Notes: generated from the sequence alone by a model not told the origin. A DNA stretch of 24,129 nucleotides from an uncultured Dehalococcoidia bacterium (GCA_964424315.1 CAYRIG010000001.1:1-24129), one strand, 5' to 3'. Counted from the first letter of the stretch, positions 361-20,824 are shown. Translations and numbers: made by a program.

Positions 361-1248
361 TTAAAGATTATTTCTTCTTTTAGCGGATTCAAGAGTGTTT
401 TTTAGAAGCATGGCTATAGTCATAGGACCGACACCTCCAGGAACAGGAGTAATTGCTGATGAAACGTCTTTAACGTTTTCGAAATCAACATCTCCTACCA
501 ACCTATATCCTGATTTGCGACTGTCATCTTGAATGCGGTTTGTACCTACATCAATCACAACTGCTCCTTTTTTGACCATATCTGCTTTAATAAAATTTTG
601 TTGTCCAACCGCAGCAATAAGTATATCTGCTTGACTAGTTATATGATGAAGATTTTGAGTCATACTATGGCACACTGTGACAGTAGCGTTTGCTCCTTTA
701 TTACGCTGCATCAATAATAACCCCAAGGGTTTTCCAACTATTTCGCTCCTTCCGCAAATTACCACATGCTTGCCTGAAATCTCTATACCACTTTTAACCA
801 ATATATGCTGCACTCCTGCAGGGGTAGCCGGAACAAATCTAGGTTGGCCTTTCACCAAAAGTCCTACATTATATGGATGCAATCCATCAACATCTTTGTC
901 TGGACTTATTACATTAATAATTTTTTCTTGATCAATGTGGTCTGGGAGAGGCAATTGCACCAATATTCCATCTACTTTGACATCTTTACTTAATTTAGCT
1001 ACATAATCTTCCAATTCTTTTTGGCTTGTGGATTCTGGGAGATAATAATCTAAAGCCTCCATCCCCACACCTGTTGCTGACCTTTTCTTGTTTCTAACAT
1101 AGACTTTAGAAGCCGAATCTTCTCCAACCAAAACTGCAGCTAGTCCTAGTGAAAATCCAGTGTTGGATTTTCTTATTAAATTTATTTCCGACGCTACAGA
1201 TTTTGTTAAGTCATCTGCAATAGCTTTACCATCAAGTACAATAGACAT
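361..1248 (-). CDS. folD: Bifunctional methylene-THF dehydrogenase / methenyl-THF cyclohydrolase FolD
   Basis: Motifs YVRNK, DGILVQLPLP, KDVDG, PATPAG, GRSEIVGKP, VIDVG, TPVPGGVGPMTIAML. Confidence 0.97.
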   Translation of the reverse strand: MSIVLDGKAIADDLTKSVASEINLIRKSNTGFSLGLAAVLVGEDSASKVYVRNKKRSATGVGMEALDYYLPESTSQKELEDYVAKLSKDVKVDGILVQLPLPDHIDQEKIINVISPDKDVDGLHPYNVGLLVKGQPRFVPATPAGVQHILVKSGIEISGKHVVICGRSEIVGKPLGLLLMQRNKGANATVTVCHSMTQNLHHITSQADILIAAVGQQNFIKADMVKKGAVVIDVGTNRIQDDSRKSGYRLVGDVDFENVKDVSSAITPVPGGVGPMTIAMLLKNTLESAKRRNNL

Positions 1249-1387: not shown

Positions 1388-2269
1388 GTGAGCAAGCTTT
1401 CAACTAATTTACAATCAGGAAAGTTCACCGTAACTTGTGAATTGAATCCCCCTAAAGGCATTAACTTAGAAAAACTCTTTAAAAAAGCCGATATGTTAAA
1501 AGAACGGGTGGTAGCAATTAATATTACCGATTCGGCAGGTTCTAATATGACGATGGCACCTATTGCGGTATCTCACCTTTTGAACCACCGCGGCATTGAA
1601 CCCATATTGCAAATTACAGGAAGAGATAGAAATAGAATAGCAATACAGGCAGATTTAATAGCAGCTAGCACACTTGGCATAACGAATGTTCTGACCATGA
1701 GCGGTGACCCTCCAAAACACGGAGACCACCCAGAAGCCAAACCTGTATTTGACTTAAACTCAACTCAAGTTCTAGATGCAATGAAAGCTATGCAGGCAGG
1801 AAAAGATCTTGGTGGAAATGCTCTTGAAAGTAATCCTGAATTCTTTCGAGGTGCCGTAGTAAATCCTGGTGCTAAAGACCTAGAAACTGAATTTGTCAAA
1901 ATGGAACAAAAGGTTGCAAGCGGAGCCCAATTTTTTCAGACACAAGCCATATTTGAGCCAGATGCGTTGGGAAAATTTATGGCGACTGCCAAAAATTTTA
2001 ATGTTCCAATTCTTGCCGGAATAATTGTTCTTAAATCTGCTAAGATGGCAAATTACCTCAATTCATATCTGCCCGGAATCTCTATACCGGAGAATATAAT
2101 TAAAAGCCTTGATTTAAGCGACAGAGACGCTATAAAAAAGGAAAGCATTTCAATCACGGCAAATATCATCAAAGAAATTCATGAAATGTGTGATGGCATA
2201 CACGTTATGGCGATAGGATGGGAAAACATGATCCCTAACATTCTTGATGAGTCAAATATAAGCAATTAA
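1388..2269 (+). CDS. metF: Methylenetetrahydrofolate reductase (MetF family)
   Basis: ELNPPKG, NITDS, RDRNRIAIQADL, GITNVLTMSGDPP, GAQFFQTQ, GIHVMAIG. GTG start with GGAG at 1374-1377. Confidence 0.93.
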   Translation: MSKLSTNLQSGKFTVTCELNPPKGINLEKLFKKADMLKERVVAINITDSAGSNMTMAPIAVSHLLNHRGIEPILQITGRDRNRIAIQADLIAASTLGITNVLTMSGDPPKHGDHPEAKPVFDLNSTQVLDAMKAMQAGKDLGGNALESNPEFFRGAVVNPGAKDLETEFVKMEQKVASGAQFFQTQAIFEPDALGKFMATAKNFNVPILAGIIVLKSAKMANYLNSYLPGISIPENIIKSLDLSDRDAIKKESISITANIIKEIHEMCDGIHVMAIGWENMIPNILDESNISN

Positions 2270-7294: not shown

Positions 7295-8074
7295 TTGCAA
7301 ATGGATAAAAGAAACTTATTTCGGTTTATATCAAATTCCTATTCATCCCCAATTAAAATCCTCCTGTATTTACGTTTTGGTTACATAGGATTTGCCATAT
7401 TTGTTTTATCTGGGTTTTACTCAAGCTGTATTTTTAATACAAAAAATGATAATGAAACTACATGGAATGAACTCCCAAGTGCTTTTGAAGTTTTATCCGC
7501 CTCTATCAATGAAATGGAGAATTTGAACTCATTCCATTTTAAGTCTACTGGCTCTATTTCAGCCACAGAAAATTTACTCTTAACTCAAATCCAAGGTGAA
7601 CTCATTAAACCTAATTATATGAACTTACAAATAAATGGTTCTTATTCTTCAGGACTAGTATTTAAAACAAGATTAATCTCACATGATGGCAAAGGTTTAA
7701 TTTTAAATCCGCTGAACAAAAAGTGGGAACCAGTTTCTGAAAACTTCAATCCAACAGGATTTTTTACTCCGCACAAAGGCATATCGAAAATCATGAGCGA
7801 ATTATACGATGTTCAGATTTCGTCCTCAGATAGTTCAGATAGTTATTATCAGTTAAATGGGATGTTGAATTCGGATTCATTAAATTACTTACTAGGAGAG
7901 ATTCCGCAACAATCACATATCAAAGTAGTATTATCAATAGGCAAGAATAATAAGTTACTATACCAAGCTAAACTGAACGGCAAATTTACGGAATCAAAAC
8001 CTAATAACGATTTGTTTATCGATATAACTAAACACAACCAACCAGTAAAGATAGAAATCCCCATCATTGAATGA
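7295..8074 (+). CDS. LppX/LprAFG-family (LprG-like) lipoprotein; exact start uncertain (TTG 7295, ATG 7301 or later)
   Basis: Hydrophobic segment ending in Cys45 (FYSSC). Segments MENLNSFHF, FNPTGFFTPHKGISKIM and C-terminal ITKHNQPVKIEIP resemble LprG/LppX as I recall them. 4-nt overlap with the MFS gene. Confidence 0.7.
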   Translation: MQMDKRNLFRFISNSYSSPIKILLYLRFGYIGFAIFVLSGFYSSCIFNTKNDNETTWNELPSAFEVLSASINEMENLNSFHFKSTGSISATENLLLTQIQGELIKPNYMNLQINGSYSSGLVFKTRLISHDGKGLILNPLNKKWEPVSENFNPTGFFTPHKGISKIMSELYDVQISSSDSSDSYYQLNGMLNSDSLNYLLGEIPQQSHIKVVLSIGKNNKLLYQAKLNGKFTESKPNNDLFIDITKHNQPVKIEIPIIE

Positions 8075-9510
8075 TTACAAATTTATTCTCTATAAATAAA
8101 ATTCGTTCAAAAATATCAACGTTTGGTGGATTATTTCCTGTATGTCTAGCTGTTTTTATAGCAGCTGACGACCAAACTGTTATTGCAACCATCTTTCCTC
8201 CCATAATGAAAGATTTGCAGATAAATATTTCAGATATCGACAAAGCTGCTTGGACCATAACAGGATATTTACTGGGATATATATGTATGATGCCTGTAGT
8301 CGGAAAATTATCCGATACATTTGGCCACAAACGTCTGCTTACTATCGTATTAATTGTTTTTGCCATAGGTTCTATGTTGGTTGGATTGAGTAACAATCTC
8401 GAATTTCTTGTTGCAAGTAGAATATTCCAGGCAATAGCCGCTGGCGCTACTATTCCACTAGCGATCAGTATCGCAAATACTTCATTACCAAAAAACCAAC
8501 ATCTTATTGCGTACGGGATTATAGCTGCCACTGCCGAAATTGGAGGTATTATAGGTCCTTTGTGGGGCGGAATAATAATAAATGTCCTGGACTGGCGATG
8601 GGTCTTTTGGTTAAACATACCTTTGATAATCTTGATTATTCCTATTATTTATAAGAATGTTAAACCCCATCACAAAAAAAATGAAAGTATTGACTATTCA
8701 GGTGCATTTTTTCTAACACTGGCATTAATATTTTTGACGTTATTGATTTCGAGATTACAAACCTTAAACTTAACAACTTATTTATGCAGCATATTTGCCG
8801 TATTAACTATCAGTGGCTTCATTCTTAGACAGATTATAGCTAAATATCCTTTAGTCCCCCATGAGTTGTTTTCTAAAGAATTCATTTTCGCGCATATGAC
8901 TCAATTCCTGGTTGGAATCGCACTAATAATAGGAATGGTAACTGTACCTCTTATGGCAAATACAATTTTTGAACTATCGCCCCTTCACTCAGGATTTTGG
9001 CTTTTAAGAATGACCTTAGGCGTAGCCATGGGAGCTTTAGCTGGAAGTATATTAGGCAACAAATATAGTAACCGATTTATAATTATTTCAGGATTGATTT
9101 TATCTTCACTAGGATATTGGTTCTTAGCAAACTGGAATCAAAATATATCAGAACCACTGTTAACTATACATTTATTTGTAACTGGAACAGGACTAGGATG
9201 CCTTATTGCACCGATAACTCATTCAGCTACTAATCAGGCTGGAGATTATAATCAAGGAATCGCAGCATCATTGATTAACACTACTAAATTTTTAGGGATG
9301 GCGTTAGGAATTTCTTCAATTTCAGTATGGGGAGCATATCGGTTTAAACAACTAAATTCTGATTTTACTTTATCTTTTTTAACTACTGATAGTACAGCTG
9401 TGAATCAACTAGTAACTAACGGGATGACTGTTTTAACTGAATTTTTTTTAATAGGCATGGTGGTATGTTTAATTGCAATGATACCAGCATTTTTATTAGG
9501 TCGGAATTAA
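8071..9510 (+). CDS. DHA2-type 14-TM MFS transporter, P55/Rv1410c-like
   Basis: WTITGYLLGYICMMPVVGKLSDTFG (motif A), GPLWGG, DWRWVFWLNIP, GYWFLANW, GIASA, SVWGAYRF. Confidence 0.88.
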   Translation: MITNLFSINKIRSKISTFGGLFPVCLAVFIAADDQTVIATIFPPIMKDLQINISDIDKAAWTITGYLLGYICMMPVVGKLSDTFGHKRLLTIVLIVFAIGSMLVGLSNNLEFLVASRIFQAIAAGATIPLAISIANTSLPKNQHLIAYGIIAATAEIGGIIGPLWGGIIINVLDWRWVFWLNIPLIILIIPIIYKNVKPHHKKNESIDYSGAFFLTLALIFLTLLISRLQTLNLTTYLCSIFAVLTISGFILRQIIAKYPLVPHELFSKEFIFAHMTQFLVGIALIIGMVTVPLMANTIFELSPLHSGFWLLRMTLGVAMGALAGSILGNKYSNRFIIISGLILSSLGYWFLANWNQNISEPLLTIHLFVTGTGLGCLIAPITHSATNQAGDYNQGIAASLINTTKFLGMALGISSISVWGAYRFKQLNSDFTLSFLTTDSTAVNQLVTNGMTVLTEFFLIGMVVCLIAMIPAFLLGRN

Positions 9511-12784: not shown

Positions 12785-13789
12785 TTATTGCGTAATGTCG
12801 GCTCTCAAATTGTTTGCCTTCAACAATTCAATGTTAACTATATTTTCAGGTGTTTTGCCAATCAAAACGTCTCCAACCTGACCTGCTGCTCGTTGTTCTA
12901 GTTCAAGTACAGCTTCCTGTGAAAAAAATGCAGTGTGAGGAGTCACTATAATATTTTCATTTTTGATTAACCTGTGATTTGTATCAGGTTTTATATCAAC
13001 CAAAACATCTACCCCTGCACCCGCAATAGTTTGCGAATTTATTGCTTCATGTAAAGCATCTTCATCAATCAATCCTCCTCGAGCGCAATTAATAAGAAAT
13101 GCATCATCCCTCATCATTCTAAATTGTTCATTGCCAAACATATTTGCAGTAGCAGGTATAAGAGGAGAATGTAAAGTGACAAAATGAGACTGCGCCAATA
13201 AATCGTCTAATTCAACTTTTTTAACTTCCAATTGATTCATAAAATTAGAGTCGATCATTGGGTCAAAAGATAAAACTTCCAGTCCAAACGCTTGTGCTTT
13301 TTTAGCTACCATCCTACCTATTCTCCCAAAACCAACAATTCCTAGCTTTTTGCCCCTTAACCTCATTATACGCATGCCCAATCCAGCATTTCCCCAACCT
13401 GATAATTTAGTATCATTATTATGCAAAACTATTTTTCTGTTCCATGCCAACAAAAGCCCCATTACATGGTCAGATACTTCGTCTACACAATAATCTGGTA
13501 CATATGTTACAATAATCCCTTGCTTCGTTGCTTCTCCCACATCAATGTTGTCAACTCCAACCCCGAACCTACCAATTACCTTACAATTTTTGGCTGAATT
13601 AACAACGTTATCTGTAACTTTGGCAAAACAAGTCAATATACCATCAACTTCTTTAGCTAGGTCTACTAAGGTATCTTCATTTCCATCAGGTGCAACTATC
13701 AACTCAATACCATATTTGGCCAATACTTTCTTCTCTGGTTCTACTGAAGGCCATACATAATCGGTAATAAGAACTTTTTTTGCCGACAT
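12785..13789 (-). CDS. D-isomer-specific 2-hydroxyacid dehydrogenase (CtBP/SerA-like)
   Basis: GRFGVGVDNID, GIVGFGRIG, TLHSPL, INCARG, VTPHTAFFS. ATG 13789 preferred (GAGGT RBS); GTG 13795 is an alternative. Confidence 0.9.
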   Translation of the reverse strand: MSAKKVLITDYVWPSVEPEKKVLAKYGIELIVAPDGNEDTLVDLAKEVDGILTCFAKVTDNVVNSAKNCKVIGRFGVGVDNIDVGEATKQGIIVTYVPDYCVDEVSDHVMGLLLAWNRKIVLHNNDTKLSGWGNAGLGMRIMRLRGKKLGIVGFGRIGRMVAKKAQAFGLEVLSFDPMIDSNFMNQLEVKKVELDDLLAQSHFVTLHSPLIPATANMFGNEQFRMMRDDAFLINCARGGLIDEDALHEAINSQTIAGAGVDVLVDIKPDTNHRLIKNENIIVTPHTAFFSQEAVLELEQRAAGQVGDVLIGKTPENIVNIELLKANNLRADITQ

Positions 13790-13817
13790 ATTCACACCTC
13801 TTTATTAATTATCATAC

Positions 13818-15431
13818 TTACATGACCATCGGATTAAATTGACACCCGTCTACAAATAAATCAAAGAAGTCTTCTGTAGTTTCAAGTTCAATATGTTCTA
13901 TATTCTTACATATTTCTTCTATTTGCGATCTCAATCTGCCCGAAAGCAGCATCTGGGTAGCCCCTTCAAGAGCTGTATTACCCACGCGATGTATATTTTC
14001 ATATCTTACATTGGCAATAAACCCAATCCTGACAGCATTTTCAACATCTATATAGTTCCCAAAACCGCCAGCAATATACATTGTCGGAATATCTTCGGCG
14101 GCTATCCCATATTCTCTTAAAACTATCTTTTGACCACAATAATTTGCAGATTTTGCCTGCGCTAATGCACTGATATCGCTTCTAGACAAAGAAAGATTAT
14201 ATTCGGGTGCAATAATAAATTCACTCAAACCATTTTCCAAGACTCCCAGGTAATTCATTTTGCCCGATTTTTTGAGTTCTGCTAGAAGATCTATCAATCC
14301 TGAACCGCAAATGCCTGTTGGTTTAACCTCAGATATTGTTTTATATTTGACTCTATCTCCCTCAAATTGAACGTGCTCTATTGCTCCATCATATGCAGGC
14401 ATCCCATATTGAATTTCACCACCTTCAAAAGCAGGGCCCGCAGGGCAAGAAGCAGCAATCATTCTATTTTTGTTCCCTACAACAACTTCTGTATTCGTTC
14501 CGACATCCACTAACATAGAAACCTGTTCGTTTTGACCCATGCCAACAGCAAGTAAATCAGCTGCCACATCTGAACCGACATGGCATCCTATTAAAGGCCC
14601 TCCATATACATTCGCTTCAGGAAACACTCGTAACCCAATTTGTTTAGCTTTTATATTTAACGCTGTGGTTGTAATTTTGTTTTGGTTAAATTCAATCTCA
14701 ACCTTTGATTTATATGGTTTTTCTCCTATGCTACTTACATCTAATCCAAAGAGAAGGTCTCTCATAGTCGCATTACCTACTACCACTATTTCATAAATAC
14801 ACCTTCTGTGGAATTTCAACTTTCTGCTCATCAACCCAATTTCAAAATTTATTGATGAAATCATCACTTTTTGTAATTCACCATTATATTCAGAGGTGTC
14901 GTATGAAATTCTATTCATTACATCGCTGCCCCCGAATTTTTGAGGGTTTTCAAAAGAAGTTATATATTTAATTTCCCCAGTTTCTAAATCCAATAAATTC
15001 ATGACCACTGTAGTGGTTCCAACGTCTATAGCTATTCCATAAATAAACCCTTTGAATTTATCTATTATTTTGCCATTGTAATAAACATTCTCTCCGCATC
15101 TTTGAGTTAAACTATCCAACTCTACTTCTCTTTTTACTGATTCAGTCAAAATTTTTGGCTGCCTGCGTAGTACATTAAACTCAACTTCAGCATTAGCATC
15201 GCCGATGGAGGCCTGACATGCTAAACGAAACCCTTCAGTCAGAAATGATTCTGCAGGCATAGGAGGGTTTAAAGAAGAGGCGCCCTTTTTAACCTCTACT
15301 ATACATTCATGACATTTCCCATTACGGCCACAGGAAGTTGGCACCCGCACATTTAAAATATCGGCATATTCAAATAAGGTTTTATTTGAAACAGATTCTA
15401 GTTTTTGATCGCTATAATTGACAGGAGCCAT
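13818..15431 (-). CDS. RACo/RamA-type ATP-dependent reductive activator of corrinoid proteins (N-terminal [2Fe-2S] plus ASKHA domain)
   Basis: CGRNGKCHEC...RLACQ ferredoxin motif; AIDVGTTT, DVGTNTE, SCPAGPAFEG, GICGSG, AGGFG, GNTALEGA. Confidence 0.92.
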   Translation of the reverse strand: MAPVNYSDQKLESVSNKTLFEYADILNVRVPTSCGRNGKCHECIVEVKKGASSLNPPMPAESFLTEGFRLACQASIGDANAEVEFNVLRRQPKILTESVKREVELDSLTQRCGENVYYNGKIIDKFKGFIYGIAIDVGTTTVVMNLLDLETGEIKYITSFENPQKFGGSDVMNRISYDTSEYNGELQKVMISSINFEIGLMSRKLKFHRRCIYEIVVVGNATMRDLLFGLDVSSIGEKPYKSKVEIEFNQNKITTTALNIKAKQIGLRVFPEANVYGGPLIGCHVGSDVAADLLAVGMGQNEQVSMLVDVGTNTEVVVGNKNRMIAASCPAGPAFEGGEIQYGMPAYDGAIEHVQFEGDRVKYKTISEVKPTGICGSGLIDLLAELKKSGKMNYLGVLENGLSEFIIAPEYNLSLSRSDISALAQAKSANYCGQKIVLREYGIAAEDIPTMYIAGGFGNYIDVENAVRIGFIANVRYENIHRVGNTALEGATQMLLSGRLRSQIEEICKNIEHIELETTEDFFDLFVDGCQFNPMVM

Positions 15432-15538: not shown

Positions 15539-15784
15539 CTACACTTCCCAAGCATTACGATAATCTAACTTATCACTTCCTTTGCAAGGGAAAAGTGAAC
15601 CATCAGTGACGGATCTATCTTGATTCCTGCAACCAAATTTTGCAGTGCAATTATCGTCAGCATTTTTGTAAGGACATCGCCATTTAGAAACTTCTGTTAC
15701 ATTTAAAGCTATATTTTCATATATTGCTTCAAGCTTCTTTATGCTTTCGATATATCTATTCTTGTTTATTTTGCTAGAACTCAA
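15539..15784 (-). CDS. Small 4-Cys hypothetical protein (about 81 aa)
   Basis: C-x8-C-x5-C-x14-C (CPYKNADDNCTAKFGC...FPC). Probable start is TTG 15784, just after the corrinoid gene stop; the ORF-track start at 15847 overlaps that gene. Confidence 0.7.
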   Translation of the reverse strand: MSSSKINKNRYIESIKKLEAIYENIALNVTEVSKWRCPYKNADDNCTAKFGCRNQDRSVTDGSLFPCKGSDKLDYRNAWEV

Positions 15785-15807
15785 AGCTACATTTCCATTA
15801 GTTGAAA

Positions 15808-16539
15808 TTATTCTTGAATTGCTAAAGTTTTCGCAATTTCCACACAATCGATGGCATCTTTACCATAACCATCAGCACCCATATCATCGGCAAAGTCCTG
15901 AGTAACAGGAGCACCCCCTACCATAATCTTTACCTCTTCCCTCATCCCTTCATCTTCGAAAGCTTGTATGACTCTACCCATGTTGGGCATAGTGGTTGTA
16001 AGCAAAGCCGACATTCCCAATACTTTAGCTTCATGTTCTTGCACAGCATCGATAAATTCTTCTGGCTTTGTATCAACCCCTAAATCATGTACTACAAATC
16101 CAGCGCCCCTTAACATCATGATACACAAATTCTTCCCTATATCATGTAAGTCGCCTTTTACTGTACCCATAATCACAATACCTACAGGGGGTATATCTGA
16201 AGCTGAAAGAATTGGTTCTATATGTACCATTCCTGCTTTCATTGCTCTTGCAGAAATAAGAACCTCTGGCACAAAAATAATGTTGTCCCTAAATTTTATC
16301 CCTACAATAGCCATACCTGCTATTAAACCATCATCCATCACAGTATTAGCCGCAAATCCAGAGTTGAGAGCTTTTGAGGTTAATTGGTCAACAAGTTTAT
16401 CGTTACCTGTTATCAAAGCATATGCGATTTCCTGCATCAAGGGGTCTGTTTTCTCATACATTTCTTGGATGTGTTTTAATTCTGAAGGATTAGCAATGTG
16501 CTTCATCTCCTGCAACACACCCTCATTGACTATCGGCAT
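15808..16539 (-). CDS. Corrinoid (cobalamin-binding) methyl-carrier protein, MtbC/MttC-like (B12 cap plus B12-binding domains)
   Basis: Cap region FVPEVLISARAM; base-off/His-on motif GDLHDIGKNL; GMSALLTTTM, VGGAPVT, GADGYG. Confidence 0.95.
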   Translation of the reverse strand: MPIVNEGVLQEMKHIANPSELKHIQEMYEKTDPLMQEIAYALITGNDKLVDQLTSKALNSGFAANTVMDDGLIAGMAIVGIKFRDNIIFVPEVLISARAMKAGMVHIEPILSASDIPPVGIVIMGTVKGDLHDIGKNLCIMMLRGAGFVVHDLGVDTKPEEFIDAVQEHEAKVLGMSALLTTTMPNMGRVIQAFEDEGMREEVKIMVGGAPVTQDFADDMGADGYGKDAIDCVEIAKTLAIQE

Positions 16540-16617: not shown

Positions 16618-17640
16618 TTATTGAAGTCTTCCATCTCTGTAGGCCTGTAGATAATTAACACAAAACTCATCCTTTCCTGTCAACATATCTATAGCCAAGC
16701 CCATTTTTTCAGAAGTTGTATCAATTTTATATACTTCTTCCAACTTTATTTGTATGGGATCTATCAAGCCTGCATTAATACCAGATTCTAGACCTAGGTA
16801 TATAAATGCCTGGTTAATTAATTTTCTCATTGGCATTCCAAATGAAACGTTGCTAAGACCCATACCTATATGTAACTGGCCCCCATATTCTTCCCTTATT
16901 TTTCTAACAGCATCAAAATAATGATTTCCGTATTCAGAATTGACTGAAATAGGAAATACAATTACATCTAAATAAATTTTATCCAACGAAAATCCTATTC
17001 GTGCCAATTCATCTAATATTTTTTTTGCATTTTCTATACGGTCATCTTCATCTTGGGGCATACCTGTTTCGCTAGTTGCCATTGCAATAACATTTGCTTT
17101 ATATGACAATGCCATCTCAAAAACTTCCGGGCGTTCAAAAGCCACTGAGTTAATTAGAGGAGAAACTCCATTATTTTTGTACGCTTTCAAACCAGCTTCG
17201 ATGATATCCGAGTTAGATGAATCTATACTGATTGGCACGGATGATGCTTTTTGCGCAACCTCAACAGTACGGGTCATGCATTTTTTCTGTATTTCTAAAT
17301 CATAATGTACTTCATCAACATTTATATCAACATAATCAGACCCCGCTTTAATTTGTTTATAAACAGCATTCTCAATATATTGTTCTCCTTCTAATTTCGC
17401 CTCTTCATCCTCCCCTATCAAATTAGTCATGGCTATTAGAAAATGCTTAATCTGTCCTTGTTGATATGGTTGGGTTTCTTTGAACCAATCAGGGACTTTC
17501 ATCAGGTTTTGGTCTCCAGATTTGTTTATGTAATTTACAGCCTCAAATCCGTCATCTGTCTTTACTATTCTTTTGCCATTCGAACGAAACACCCTCGTAG
17601 CATGGATGTTTTCACCTACAATTACAAATTTGTCGGGCAT
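16618..17640 (-). CDS. Methyltetrahydrofolate:corrinoid methyltransferase (AcsE / MetH pterin-binding domain family)
   Basis: IVGENI, AGSDYVDINVD, ISIDSS, LINSV, YLDVIVFPI, GLSNVSFGMP.RKLINQAF, LIDP; the conserved Asp/Asn pterin-binding positions are recognisable. Confidence 0.9.
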   Translation of the reverse strand: MPDKFVIVGENIHATRVFRSNGKRIVKTDDGFEAVNYINKSGDQNLMKVPDWFKETQPYQQGQIKHFLIAMTNLIGEDEEAKLEGEQYIENAVYKQIKAGSDYVDINVDEVHYDLEIQKKCMTRTVEVAQKASSVPISIDSSNSDIIEAGLKAYKNNGVSPLINSVAFERPEVFEMALSYKANVIAMATSETGMPQDEDDRIENAKKILDELARIGFSLDKIYLDVIVFPISVNSEYGNHYFDAVRKIREEYGGQLHIGMGLSNVSFGMPMRKLINQAFIYLGLESGINAGLIDPIQIKLEEVYKIDTTSEKMGLAIDMLTGKDEFCVNYLQAYRDGRLQ

Positions 17641-17685: not shown

Positions 17686-18726
17686 TCAGCCTACCGAGTT
17701 TTCCTCAGTCCATTCTTTTACAGCCTTTGGTATTTCAAGCAAATTTTCTAACTTGGTGGCTAACGGTATCGCGCACTCAGGTGCTATAAGAGGAACTCCC
17801 GCATCCAAACACCTATACACTTCCTCTCTAACATCCTGTGGTCCTTTACTATATAAAGTAACCGGGTTATTAACATTACCAACAAGTTGTATTCGCCCAT
17901 CAACTATTTCCATCGCTTTAGCAGGGTCATTTCTAGAATCAAAATGAAAGGCAGCCATTTTATTTTGTGCTATATAATCCATCCTGTCCAAAGTATAACC
18001 ACAAATATGCAATATCAGAGGAACTTTTAACTCTTCTACAGCTTCTTGATGTATATCTAACAAAAACCTTTTATAATATTCTCCGCTTACTAAATCTCCT
18101 GTAGCATGGTCAGGGTATGTTAATACATCTGCTCCTGCGTCAATTTGCGCTTGACCAAATAATACAGATATCTCTTTTAATTTATCTAAGCACTTGATAG
18201 TCAATGCAGGATCATCAATTGACATAAGTAAAAAGGTTTCTACTCCAAAAACATGGTATGCCAAGGTCCACGGGCCCATAGTTTTACCAATAATTGCAAC
18301 CTCATCACCAAATTCTTGCTTTAGTATTTTTATTGAATCTATGATTGCCACATTATCTTGATGCTGTAAAAAATTATTTGGGATATTGATATCTTCAACA
18401 GATTTCCAAATAGGATTACTCATTCTCACAGTAGGCCAATTATCTTTCTGTTCCCATTGCATTTCACAACCCAATGCTGAAGATTCCTGAATAATAGTAA
18501 AATATGGAGCTATTGAATCAAACCCCAATTCTGTATACCCCGTAGAAGCTAATCTTGCATTAAGTTCAGGGTCTCTACAAGCATCTGGGAAAGGCGCATC
18601 GACTAAATCCATAAGCTCAACTGTTGCTACGTTCGTTGGATTTGAGACAGGAGTGCGATCAACCGGTAATCCATTAAGTGCATTCATAACTCTTTCTTTA
18701 GGCGTCATTTTTTCAATTGTAACCAT
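17686..18726 (-). CDS. MtaA/CmuA-family (UroD-fold) Zn-dependent corrinoid methyltransferase
   Basis: MTPKERV...DRTPV start, GPWTLA, ILHICG and APEC (putative His-x-Cys...Cys Zn ligands), VGNVNN; lacks the HemE RQAGR motif. ATG 18726 follows GGAGG. Confidence 0.88.
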   Translation of the reverse strand: MVTIEKMTPKERVMNALNGLPVDRTPVSNPTNVATVELMDLVDAPFPDACRDPELNARLASTGYTELGFDSIAPYFTIIQESSALGCEMQWEQKDNWPTVRMSNPIWKSVEDINIPNNFLQHQDNVAIIDSIKILKQEFGDEVAIIGKTMGPWTLAYHVFGVETFLLMSIDDPALTIKCLDKLKEISVLFGQAQIDAGADVLTYPDHATGDLVSGEYYKRFLLDIHQEAVEELKVPLILHICGYTLDRMDYIAQNKMAAFHFDSRNDPAKAMEIVDGRIQLVGNVNNPVTLYSKGPQDVREEVYRCLDAGVPLIAPECAIPLATKLENLLEIPKAVKEWTEENSVG

Positions 18727-18768
18727 TGATTTCCTCCACATTTTCTTTAGTTAATAAGCATAAGTTTT

Positions 18769-19443
18769 TCATTCTTGGGTGGAAAACCCTAGAGTATTTG
18801 TAGTCATTTGGCCCCTCATTGAGTCGGCATCCAACATATCTTGTGTTCCAGTTATATTTCGAGCATAAGGAAGAATAATGCGAATCAATTTATCTCTTCG
18901 ATATCCTCCAGGGAACATTACTTTAGTATTGTCTATTTTCTCCATATTTCCATATCTTACCAATCCCTGAATTGTTGCACGTTTACGCAATTCTGGGTTT
19001 TTAAATTCACCAGTTGTTGTCACTTCATAAATAGTTCTCCCGTTGTTATCGGAAGAATTTATAATCAAGGTTAAAGGAGAGCGAAGATCTTTAATGCTAA
19101 TCACACCATCTGGATGCTTGTGGTCAGCCGGCTTTTCTACGGCTAGTTTTATCAAAAATTTTACTGGACGCTCATATAATTCTCCATTAGGAAACTTGGC
19201 TTGGTTATTAGTATTGGGCACAGAAACCATTCCGCCCAAATTGATTAGCTGATCTCTTATTTCACTTATCCTGATTGAAACACCTGGAACCTTACTAAAT
19301 GTCCAAACAGTGTAAATACCGTTTTTTTCATATAAACCCACGCTGATATTATTAAAGTTAGGGTCAATGGATATTAGTTCCGAACAACTTCCAATCCTAT
19401 CTAAAACATCCTTGATATTTTCTTTATTAGCTAATTGATTCAT
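18769..19443 (-). CDS. Hypothetical protein (224 aa) with an internal two-fold repeat
   Basis: Long ORF embedded co-directionally in the operon with short gaps; no family recognised. Confidence 0.8.
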   Translation of the reverse strand: MNQLANKENIKDVLDRIGSCSELISIDPNFNNISVGLYEKNGIYTVWTFSKVPGVSIRISEIRDQLINLGGMVSVPNTNNQAKFPNGELYERPVKFLIKLAVEKPADHKHPDGVISIKDLRSPLTLIINSSDNNGRTIYEVTTTGEFKNPELRKRATIQGLVRYGNMEKIDNTKVMFPGGYRRDKLIRIILPYARNITGTQDMLDADSMRGQMTTNTLGFSTQE

Positions 19444-19463: not shown

Positions 19464-20357
19464 TTATATTTTATCGCTTGAGTAATTTGAAACAACAGAT
19501 TTTATGGCAGAAATATGATCAGGTGTTGTGCCACAACATCCCCCAAATATATTTATTTTTATATCAATTAATTCTTTAACCTTATCAGCCATAAATTCAG
19601 GAGTTTCAGGGTAAATTATCCTACCATTAACAATTTTAGGAAACCCAGCATTACTGTGTATGACTAAAGGTCCGTCATCTACGGTTCTCATTATTTTCGC
19701 TATTTTAACCATGTTTTCTATACCATTTCCACAATTTGTTCCTACAGCATCTGCACCTTTTTTCCTAATTTCTTTAACCGCCTCTTCAGGAGTTACCCCC
19801 ATCATGGTAAAAAACCCCCTAGGACCTAAATCAAATGTCATTGTAGCCATTACCACTAAATTCGTGTTTCGTTTTGCAGATTCTACGGCCAAAAGAGTTT
19901 CTTCTAAAGAAGTCATGGTTTCTATTATTACTCCATCTGCTCCACCTTTCTCTAATGCCTGAATCTGTTCTGTAAATCCATCAAACATTTCCTGTTCACT
20001 CACAGGTCCTAAAGGTTGTAAGAATTCACCCGTAGGACCAACTGAACCGACAACAAATTTATCTCTAGGACATACACTCTTTGCATGTTGTGCCGCTTTC
20101 ATATTAATTTTTACCAAATCTTCTCTTAACCCATATTTAGCCAGCATGAAAGGATTACCGCCAAATGAATTTGTTAAAACTAAATCAGCTCCGCTTTTAA
20201 AATAATCATCTGCCATTTTGACAATCAAACCAGGATTGGTTAGGTTGAGCTCCTCAGGACATCCTCCCGGCTCCAATCCATTGCTCTGCAAATAAGTTCC
20301 TGTCGCACCGTCTGATAATAGATTGGAGCCACTTTCAATTTTTTTTAGCAAATCCAT
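19464..20357 (-). CDS. Stand-alone homocysteine S-methyltransferase domain protein (MetH N-terminal / Bmt-like)
   Basis: SDGATGT, GADLVLTNSFGG, GSVGPTG, IIETM, Zn ligands GTNC and GGCCGT. Preferred start is ATG 20357 (MDLLKK). Confidence 0.93.
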   Translation of the reverse strand: MDLLKKIESGSNLLSDGATGTYLQSNGLEPGGCPEELNLTNPGLIVKMADDYFKSGADLVLTNSFGGNPFMLAKYGLREDLVKINMKAAQHAKSVCPRDKFVVGSVGPTGEFLQPLGPVSEQEMFDGFTEQIQALEKGGADGVIIETMTSLEETLLAVESAKRNTNLVVMATMTFDLGPRGFFTMMGVTPEEAVKEIRKKGADAVGTNCGNGIENMVKIAKIMRTVDDGPLVIHSNAGFPKIVNGRIIYPETPEFMADKVKELIDIKINIFGGCCGTTPDHISAIKSVVSNYSSDKI

Positions 20358-20370
20358 TTCCAGTTTATCC

Positions 20371-20730
20371 TTAATATTCCATCCAATGGTCATAGGCACC
20401 AGGATCAGTTTTTCTTTTGCCTTCTCTGTCTAAATCCCTAATTCTTGCCACAAAGTCTTGTGGGAATTTCTCATTAAATCTATTAACCGTATCGTTCAAA
20501 ATATTGTTTATTTCCCCTTGTACAAAAAACGCTTCTCCCCAAATGAATCCGTTTAAATAATCGTCACTCCCATAACTATTTTCAAACATAGCGATAGCAT
20601 CAGCACCTTCTTGGAATCTATTATCTAATTGCCCAGATAATTTATCACCACCAAACACAACTTCTACTTGTAATGGGATTTCTTTCCAGTACAAAATACG
20701 AACACTGATATTTTCTACTTTATTGTTCAT
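20371..20730 (-). CDS. Small protein resembling the PF13769 'virulence factor' family
   Basis: ILYWKEIPLQV...LDNRFQEGADAIAM...SDDYL matches my recollection of the family pattern YW.DIP.QV...L..RF..A.D..AM....D.YL. ATG 20730 preferred. Confidence 0.7.
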   Translation of the reverse strand: MNNKVENISVRILYWKEIPLQVEVVFGGDKLSGQLDNRFQEGADAIAMFENSYGSDDYLNGFIWGEAFFVQGEINNILNDTVNRFNEKFPQDFVARIRDLDREGKRKTDPGAYDHWMEY

Positions 20731-20824
20731 TTTCTTTTCAAATTGATTCAGTACACTAATTACCAAAGATTAATCCACCTTAATCAACAATGTCTAAATA
20801 AAATAATGGCATTTAGTTAAAGGT

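Follow-up and report, generated by a model that had tools for sequence, protein, structure and literature searches.

An MtaA-like zinc methyltransferase in a single-carrier corrinoid operon of SAR202 bacteria, and its possible role as a methyl donor port for methionine synthesis

The DNA analysed here, which we term the window, is a stretch of 24,129 nucleotides from an uncultured Dehalococcoidia bacterium (GCA_964424315.1 CAYRIG010000001.1:1-24129). It is the entire contig C1 of a 1.93-Mb metagenome-assembled genome (MAG) that is 84% complete. A block of nine co-directional genes separated by short gaps runs from 20766 down to 12785, and within it lies a gene for a methyltransferase that resembles MtaA of the methanogens. 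We are concerned with the probable function of this MtaA-like enzyme, and with the corrinoid system of which it appears to be a part. The genes of the operon, in order, and two further genes of C1 metabolism within the window are as follows (aa, amino acids; THF, tetrahydrofolate).

20371..20766, minus strand: small PF13769 ('Virulence_fact') protein at the operon head (PF13769, E 5.5e-11)
19464..20399, minus strand: stand-alone homocysteine S-methyltransferase of the MetH N-terminal/BHMT type (PF02574, 218.6 bits; Cys223, Cys288-Cys289)
18769..19443, minus strand: 224-aa partner protein, restricted to SAR202/Dehalococcoidia (co-occurrence; no Pfam match)
17686..18741, minus strand: MtaA/CmuA-subfamily predicted zinc methyltransferase of URO-D fold (MtaA-like), 351 aa (PF01208, TIGR01463, 4ay7, conserved zinc triad)
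16618..17640, minus strand: methyl-THF:corrinoid (pterin-binding) methyltransferase (PF00809, 79.9 bits; NF005719, 201.9 bits)
15808..16539, minus strand: corrinoid (B12-binding) carrier protein (PF02607 cap and PF02310; D-x-H-x-x-G at residue 130)
15539..15847, minus strand: small Cys-rich protein between the corrinoid and RACo genes (no Pfam match)
13818..15431, minus strand: RACo/RamA-type ATP-dependent corrinoid reductive activase with an N-terminal 2Fe-2S domain (PF14574, PF17651, PF00111)
12785..13795, minus strand: D-2-hydroxyacid dehydrogenase (PGDH-like), last gene of the block (PF02826, PF00389)
1388..2269, plus strand: metF (MTHFR), outside the operon (PF02219; sole full copy in the MAG)
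361..1248, minus strand: folD, outside the operon (PF02882, PF00763; single copy in the MAG)

The open reading frame of the MtaA-like gene extends from 17686 to 18741; the end at 18726 given in the initial annotation corresponds to the second in-frame ATG (residue 6). The protein covers the full URO-D model PF01208 with 223 bits, and scores above the cut-offs of TIGR01463 mtaA_cmuA (249.7 bits against 235.4) and NF004889 (264.2 bits against 244), so that its earlier assignment to the MtaA/CmuA type stands. It falls under the cut-offs of the equivalog models for MtaA (NF040654; 232.6 bits, cut-off 400) and MtbA (NF041608; 210.7 bits, cut-off 600). The closest structure in the PDB is that of Methanosarcina mazei MtaA (4ay7, E 1.2e-51). 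The segments LHICGYT (containing His245 and Cys247) and APECAI (Cys323) align with the H-x-C...C zinc positions of 4ay7, and these three residues are kept in at least 98% of 120 orthologs; the HIC and APEC sequences that had been suggested as zinc ligands thus coincide with a conserved metal site. The RQAGR motif of HemE is absent from the translation, as had been noted before, and the score on the HemE model TIGR01464 is 75.3 bits against a cut-off of 303. Judged from its sequence, the gene encodes a zinc-dependent methyltransferase of the MtaA (soluble coenzyme M (CoM) methyltransferase) type, acting on a corrinoid protein. A search for the CoM biosynthesis gene comA (PF02679) gave no match in the 84%-complete MAG, and did not extend to other routes to CoM.

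A quick maximum-likelihood tree was calculated from 91 full-length representatives at 50% identity together with the query, five orthologs and Escherichia coli HemE. The tree was labelled through NCBIfam equivalog scores only, and contained no references for MtsA, MtpA, OdmB, VdmB, MtvB, MtoB or CdmB. The SAR202 sequences lie within a clade of 37 mostly uncultured bacterial sequences (SH-aLRT 99), the members of which score lowest on the methanogen models. Sequences passing the MtaA model (P0345 and P0351) or the MtbA model (P0316), and those fused to an MtaC-like domain (P0318, P0324 and P0325), are all placed outside it. A profile made from the clade scores 267 bits with MtaA (4ay7) against 64 bits or less with UroD chains, and retrieves no O-demethylase or CdmB-type chain at E ≤0.01. 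The cluster names of the representatives carry only 'MtaA/CmuA family' labels, and the genomic contexts of the two nearest representatives outside the SAR202 order of the MAG (P0242 and P0245) are uninformative. Two other relatives within the clade are more helpful. In one, from the Chloroflexota, the URO-D protein is encoded in a cassette with RACo, a pterin methyltransferase, MTHFR, a corrinoid protein and CobW; in the second a fused URO-D/B12 protein lies near DUF1638, PF13769, a pterin methyltransferase and RACo (L028). These cassettes are of the donor type, and support a donor role for the MtaA-like enzyme.

Two further features of this clade may be recorded. The gene for the CobW-family GTPase, a putative metal chaperone, directly follows that of the URO-D methyltransferase in the Chloroflexota relative (L027:9158-10066), an arrangement that fits zinc loading of this type of enzyme. 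Unexpectedly, the metagenomic protein P0258 (686 aa) has an N-terminal 3-dehydroquinate synthase (AroB, 339 bits) fused to a C-terminal MtaA-like domain of the same clade.

There are 4,044 homologs of the MtaA-like protein at E ≤0.001. The best 120 of these are 75-96% identical to it, and the named ones among them are labelled as marine Chloroflexi/Dehalococcoidia MAGs. The same gene order is found on marine metagenome contigs of 100-212 kb (L007-L010), and is kept in 10 of the 13 loci that were fetched from genomes of other families within the order. Outside the order, the members of the class that were sampled gave only distant matches, at 41% identity or less. In the fetched relatives two products of the operon are better conserved than the rest, the corrinoid protein at 69-88% identity and the MtaA-like protein at 65-82%. 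The D-2-hydroxyacid dehydrogenase gene comes after that for RACo in L007-L010 and in several of the fetched loci, and in the relative G294 an MTHFR gene has been inserted within the operon.

Co-inheritance was analysed by ortholog searches of 121 genomes of the order, in 61 of which an ortholog of the MtaA-like protein (64-98% identity) is present. The 224-aa protein accompanies it in 59 of these, and was found in none of the other genomes searched. An ortholog of the stand-alone homocysteine methyltransferase (at least 47% identity, in frames of ~300 aa) is present in 60 of the 61, and in two other genomes; the single MtaA-positive genome that lacks it is an 81%-complete MAG. The stand-alone pterin methyltransferase occurs in 45 of the 61 carriers, and in no genome that lacks the MtaA-like gene. 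Genomes negative for the MtaA-like gene have a full-length MetH-like frame (~1,180 aa) or a YitJ-like frame (~630 aa). Of the 16 carriers in which the stand-alone pterin methyltransferase is missing, nine possess a long MetH-like frame in its place; the other seven yielded neither with the queries used. Among these seven is G238, a closed genome in one contig, 99% complete. For five of the seven the sole PF00809 match is a frame of ~300 aa scoring 233-260 bits, and thus like dihydropteroate synthase (DHPS) by its score (the methyltransferase of the window scores 80 bits). From these counts the MtaA-like enzyme, the 224-aa partner, the corrinoid protein and the homocysteine methyltransferase emerge as an invariant core, to which the folate port is optional. 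In the seven genomes lacking a detectable folate module the MtaA-like enzyme is the only visible loader of the carrier that serves the homocysteine methyltransferase. Co-inheritance with the homocysteine methyltransferase and the 224-aa protein, which the initial annotation did not mention, is the strongest signal from the gene's context. Tandem duplicates of the MtaA-like gene are found in five genomes, as would be expected for an enzyme on the substrate side.

In the MAG itself every corrinoid-related part is present as a single copy, including the corrinoid protein and RACo. The MtaA-like gene is the only one with a PF01208 (URO-D) domain, and the homocysteine methyltransferase gene the only one with PF02574. 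The corrinoid protein is MtgC-like at 212 bits, under the cut-off of that model. No MetH reactivation domain (PF02965) was found in the MAG, and neither an MttB-family gene (PF06253) nor DUF1638 (PF07796) was detected in the 84% of the genome that it represents. The genes metF and folD lie ~15 kb from the operon behind unrelated genes and are probably housekeeping copies; fhs is present elsewhere in the genome, outside the window.

The arrangement has a close parallel in the Proteobacteria. The methionine synthase of Phaeobacter is split into three proteins and is reactivated by a RamA-like protein (PMC5764234), and split MetH shares MtgC and MtgD with the donor enzyme MtgB (PMC12478193). In the split MetH/MtgBCDE hub of the marine Alphaproteobacteria Phaeobacter inhibens and Ruegeria pomeroyi one corrinoid protein is common to the pterin, homocysteine and donor methyltransferases, and a RamA/RACo-type activase replaces the reactivation domain of MetH. 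The SAR202 MAG likewise has stand-alone corrinoid, pterin and homocysteine methyltransferase proteins, RACo and no PF02965, and most carriers of the operon have no classical MetH. The third port differs, as it is a zinc enzyme of the URO-D/MtaA type in SAR202 and not an MttB-family MtgB, with neither PF06253 nor DUF1638 in the MAG. In addition the SAR202 parts are all gathered in one operon, together with the extra 224-aa, PF13769 and small Cys-rich proteins, and the part that can be dispensed with is the folate module and not the donor enzyme. We regard the system as a variant of the known split-MetH/Mtg hub, distinguished by the URO-D-type putative donor enzyme, a lineage-specific partner of unmatched fold and a dispensable folate port.

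On the side of the enzyme itself, Methanosarcina MtaA (4ay7/4ay8), MtbA, MtsA and MtpA have the same fold and H-x-C...C zinc site, and act with a separate corrinoid partner. Unlike MtaA and MtbA, the SAR202 protein is under the equivalog cut-offs, belongs to a separate clade, has no CoM context by the comA search of the 84%-complete MAG, and is found in marine SAR202 (Chloroflexota) and not in a methanogen. A second comparison is with the type 1 mlp clusters described by Kountz and Balskus (PMC10418091), in which MtaA-like enzymes with a His-Cys-Cys site are encoded, independently of methanogenesis, beside a corrinoid protein and an activase of the RACE/Ram type, and for which a role in methyl-S or methyl-Se metabolism was proposed. 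Those clusters contain two to three distinct Mlps, at least Mlp2 and Mlp3, and no THF or homocysteine modules, and belong to obligate anaerobes; the SAR202 operon has one Mlp (two in some relatives) with a homocysteine methyltransferase and usually a pterin methyltransferase.

We propose that the MtaA-like enzyme, probably together with the 224-aa protein, would methylate the Co(I) of the one corrinoid protein that the operon encodes, with a small methylated sulfur compound as the methyl source. This donor could be methanethiol, dimethyl sulfide (DMS) or methylmercaptopropionate (MMPA); a methyl-selenium compound is less likely. The stand-alone homocysteine methyltransferase would pass the corrinoid-bound methyl group to homocysteine, generating methionine. 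Where the pterin methyltransferase is present, as it is in the window, the same carrier could also exchange its methyl group with THF, and this exchange would allow either the classical MetH reaction or drainage to C1 oxidation via MetF, FolD and Fhs. Corrinoid oxidised to the Co(II) state would be returned to Co(I) by RACo. Thioether-to-thioether transfer, i.e. from X-S-CH3 to homocysteine, should be near thermoneutral, while transfer from a thioether to THF opposes the course of the MetH reaction. The MtaA-like gene is linked more tightly to the gene for the homocysteine methyltransferase than to that for the pterin enzyme, as would fit these energetics.

Of the substrates that the initial annotation had listed, the sulfur compounds are favoured. 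A His-Cys-Cys zinc site is the mark of S- and Se-methyltransferases within the UroD superfamily, with the O-demethylases having replaced the Cys ligands (PMC10418091), and CdmB lacks zinc (PMC13222342); the His-Cys-Cys triad is intact in the MtaA-like protein, and its nearest solved relative, MtaA, is a thiol methyltransferase. The same type of enzyme is reported in M. acetivorans, where MtpA/MtpC forms a methylmercaptopropionate:cob(I)alamin system (10.1101/548461). We infer both in which direction the methyl group moves and to which chemical class the substrate belongs, and the earlier caution that the substrate cannot be read from the sequence remains in force. We consider the chances about evenly balanced that the enzyme loads the corrinoid from a methyl-sulfur donor for methionine synthesis, with folate exchange where that module exists. 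More tentatively, the MtaA-like enzyme and its 224-aa partner might supply the methyl-donor side of a methionine synthase that depends on corrinoid but not on folate (a 'methylthiol:homocysteine transmethylase') and that uses the abundant marine compounds methanethiol, DMS or MMPA, the folate port being optional.

Several points weigh against the reading as a methyl-sulfur donor port. The direction of transfer is not readable from homology, because MtaA and MtbA of methanogens run the opposite way, from methyl-corrinoid to thiol. The zinc motif alone cannot exclude methyl halides, because CmuA also keeps H-x-C. The operon contains no transporter or catabolic gene that would single out one donor. 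That the pterin module is missing from some carriers was judged with a single protein query and a single Pfam model, the remaining PF00809 matches being putative DHPS. Lastly the MAG contains four short MetE-like (PF01717) hits, all under the equivalog cut-offs, that may supply methionine independently. These are located at G000:C50:3595-4563, C37:94-1041, C183 and C35 (L003-L006), two of them being full-length (339 and 359 aa); identity as 'core' corrinoid-dependent methionine synthases is one possibility among others.

The opposite direction is the most serious competitor. As an acceptor-side enzyme the MtaA-like protein would transfer a methyl group from the methylated corrinoid protein to a thiol, sulfide or selenide, in biosynthesis or detoxification, the corrinoid being loaded from methyl-THF, or from methionine through a reversible homocysteine methyltransferase. 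MtaA and MtbA, the closest characterised relatives, catalyse just such a transfer from methyl-corrinoid to thiol, ClMlp2 was assayed in that direction with selenide and sulfide (PMC10418091), and a methyl-THF loader is present in the operon of the window. But in the seven genomes without a detectable folate module only methionine could act as donor, which would make little physiological sense, and comA was not found in the 84%-complete MAG. Moreover, the tight co-inheritance is with the homocysteine methyltransferase and not the pterin methyltransferase, and so fits the donor role better. We therefore think an acceptor role unlikely, though deserving of some weight.

The initial annotation proposed a non-fused cmu-like route as one option. 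On this reading the methyl group of a halide or an ether, transferred by a cmu-like or O-demethylase-like enzyme, would pass mainly to THF and be oxidised via MetF and FolD. All of the parts that the annotation invoked are indeed present in the window by domain matches (the methyltransferase, corrinoid protein, THF methyltransferase, metF and folD), as in Methylorubrum extorquens CM4, where CmuA and CmuB provide a URO-D-type methyltransferase, corrinoid and pterin methyltransferase, and the C1 unit is oxidised through MetF and FolD. TIGR01463 spans both MtaA and CmuA, the pterin methyltransferase and corrinoid genes are adjacent, fhs is in the genome, and an MTHFR gene lies inside the operon of G294 and adjoins the gene of the clade relative P0253. 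The route itself is weakly supported. True CmuA (M. extorquens CM4, pCMU01) is only 23% identical over 272 aa (41 bits); a tblastn search of plasmids with the MtaA-like protein at E 1e-5 did not find cmuA, and CmuA was reached only via the fused relative P0254. CM4 CmuA is a 617-aa fusion with a C-terminal corrinoid domain, whereas the SAR202 protein has 351 aa and its corrinoid protein a separate gene; folD and purU adjoin cmuA in CM4, whereas metF and folD in the window are single-copy genes some 15 kb away. The O-demethylase methyltransferase I enzymes, in which the zinc Cys ligands are lost or replaced by carboxylates, and zinc-free CdmB (PMC10418091, PMC13222342), are not matched by the clade profile. 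Finally the THF module is missing from 16 of the 61 carriers, against one for the homocysteine methyltransferase. Entry of this kind seems to us improbable. Less probable still is salvage of methyl-selenium, by which dimethylselenide or methylselenol would be demethylated to provide selenide for selenoproteins, as proposed for the type 1 mlp clusters. The His-Cys-Cys site would suit Se also, and the MAG encodes SelD with an in-frame TGA, as do 105 of the 121 genomes. However, selD does not track the MtaA-like gene: it is equally common in MtaA-negative genomes, and searches of the MtaA-positive genomes G029, G064 and G088 (95-97% complete) did not detect it. In addition, the type 1 mlp clusters themselves have at least two Mlps, no homocysteine or THF modules and anaerobic hosts. 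We attach very little probability to it. As for a true uroporphyrinogen decarboxylase (HemE), the URO-D fold is shared and this is the only PF01208 gene in the MAG, but the clade profile strongly prefers MtaA to UroD chains, the zinc triad is present and RQAGR is not, and the gene sits among those of a corrinoid operon. With the low score on TIGR01464, the sequence evidence refutes this identity, and we give it virtually no credence.

The selD gene of the MAG is at G000:C16:4596-5519 (L043; TIGR00476, 370 bits), and its one in-frame TGA is the signature of a selenocysteine-containing SelD. A single TGA in the selD of nearly every genome indicates that the use of selenocysteine is apparently a general trait of this SAR202 order.

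Three proteins of the operon are without an assigned function. The 224-aa protein has no Pfam match even at E 10, and the named ones among its 306 homologs, 'SAR202 cluster bacterium' among them, are all called hypothetical. A single-sequence model of the protein has a pLDDT (predicted local distance difference test) of 31, rising to 86 for an alignment-based AF2 model. No fold match was found for the latter (Foldseek against the PDB E ≥0.03, VIA best Z 4.9, atlas TM ≤0.34). Its folded body is predicted to consist of a strand-strand-strand-helix unit that is repeated twice. The C-terminal tail RGQMTT.TLGF (about residues 201-224) is invariant or nearly so across 60 homologs and is predicted to be disordered (pLDDT <50). 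The combination of conservation and flexibility in the model suggests that the tail docks into a partner, perhaps the barrel of the MtaA-like protein.

The PF13769 protein is present at the head of the operon in 9 of the 10 fetched relatives that retain the MtaA-like gene, and a PF13769 gene is also found in the cluster of the fused URO-D/B12 protein with DUF1638, pterin methyltransferase and RACo (L028:3499-4411). Since it occurs in both settings it appears to be a recurrent accessory of corrinoid methyltransferase systems; the Pfam name 'Virulence factor' looks misleading, and the protein behaves as a corrinoid methyltransferase accessory. The small Cys-rich protein has no Pfam match, and is kept at 46-60% identity in 9 of the same 10 relatives.

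Rfam searches revealed no riboswitch (B12 or SAM) in the window, and thus give no hint to the regulation of the operon. Scans of the window for promoters and terminators did not rise above shuffled controls. Elsewhere in the window, at 7295-9510 on the plus strand, a gene for an LppX/LprAFG-family lipoprotein overlaps one for a major facilitator superfamily (MFS) transporter, resembling the mycobacterial LprG-P55 pairing although the host belongs to the Chloroflexota. In two genomes of different families, G221 (L041:8893-11842) and G263 (L042:9323-12458), a GmrSD-type restriction gene and DUF433 lie between the 224-aa and MtaA-like genes; the insertion in G263, at the same spot as that in G221, carries DUF4268 as well. 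From the identity of these genes (GmrSD, DUF433 and DUF4268) we reject the inserts as part of the pathway.

In the dark ocean, the SAR202 bacteria rank with the most abundant heterotrophs. The operon is present in about half of the 121 genomes, and most of those have no classical MetH, so that it is probably the B12-dependent methionine synthase of the SAR202 bacteria that carry it. We found no paper linking SAR202 with MtaA or uroporphyrinogen decarboxylase. The analysis provides a testable role for three uncharacterised proteins of the operon, namely those of 224 aa, of the PF13769 family and of the small Cys-rich type. If methyl-sulfur compounds are indeed accepted by the MtaA-like port, methanethiol, DMS or MMPA would have a sink that has not been described before, and the principle of the shared corrinoid hub, known from the MttB-type glycine betaine system of the Proteobacteria, would reach further than that system. 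The port would then also be a folate-independent route to methionine that would tie the marine organosulfur cycle directly to the methionine supply of SAR202.

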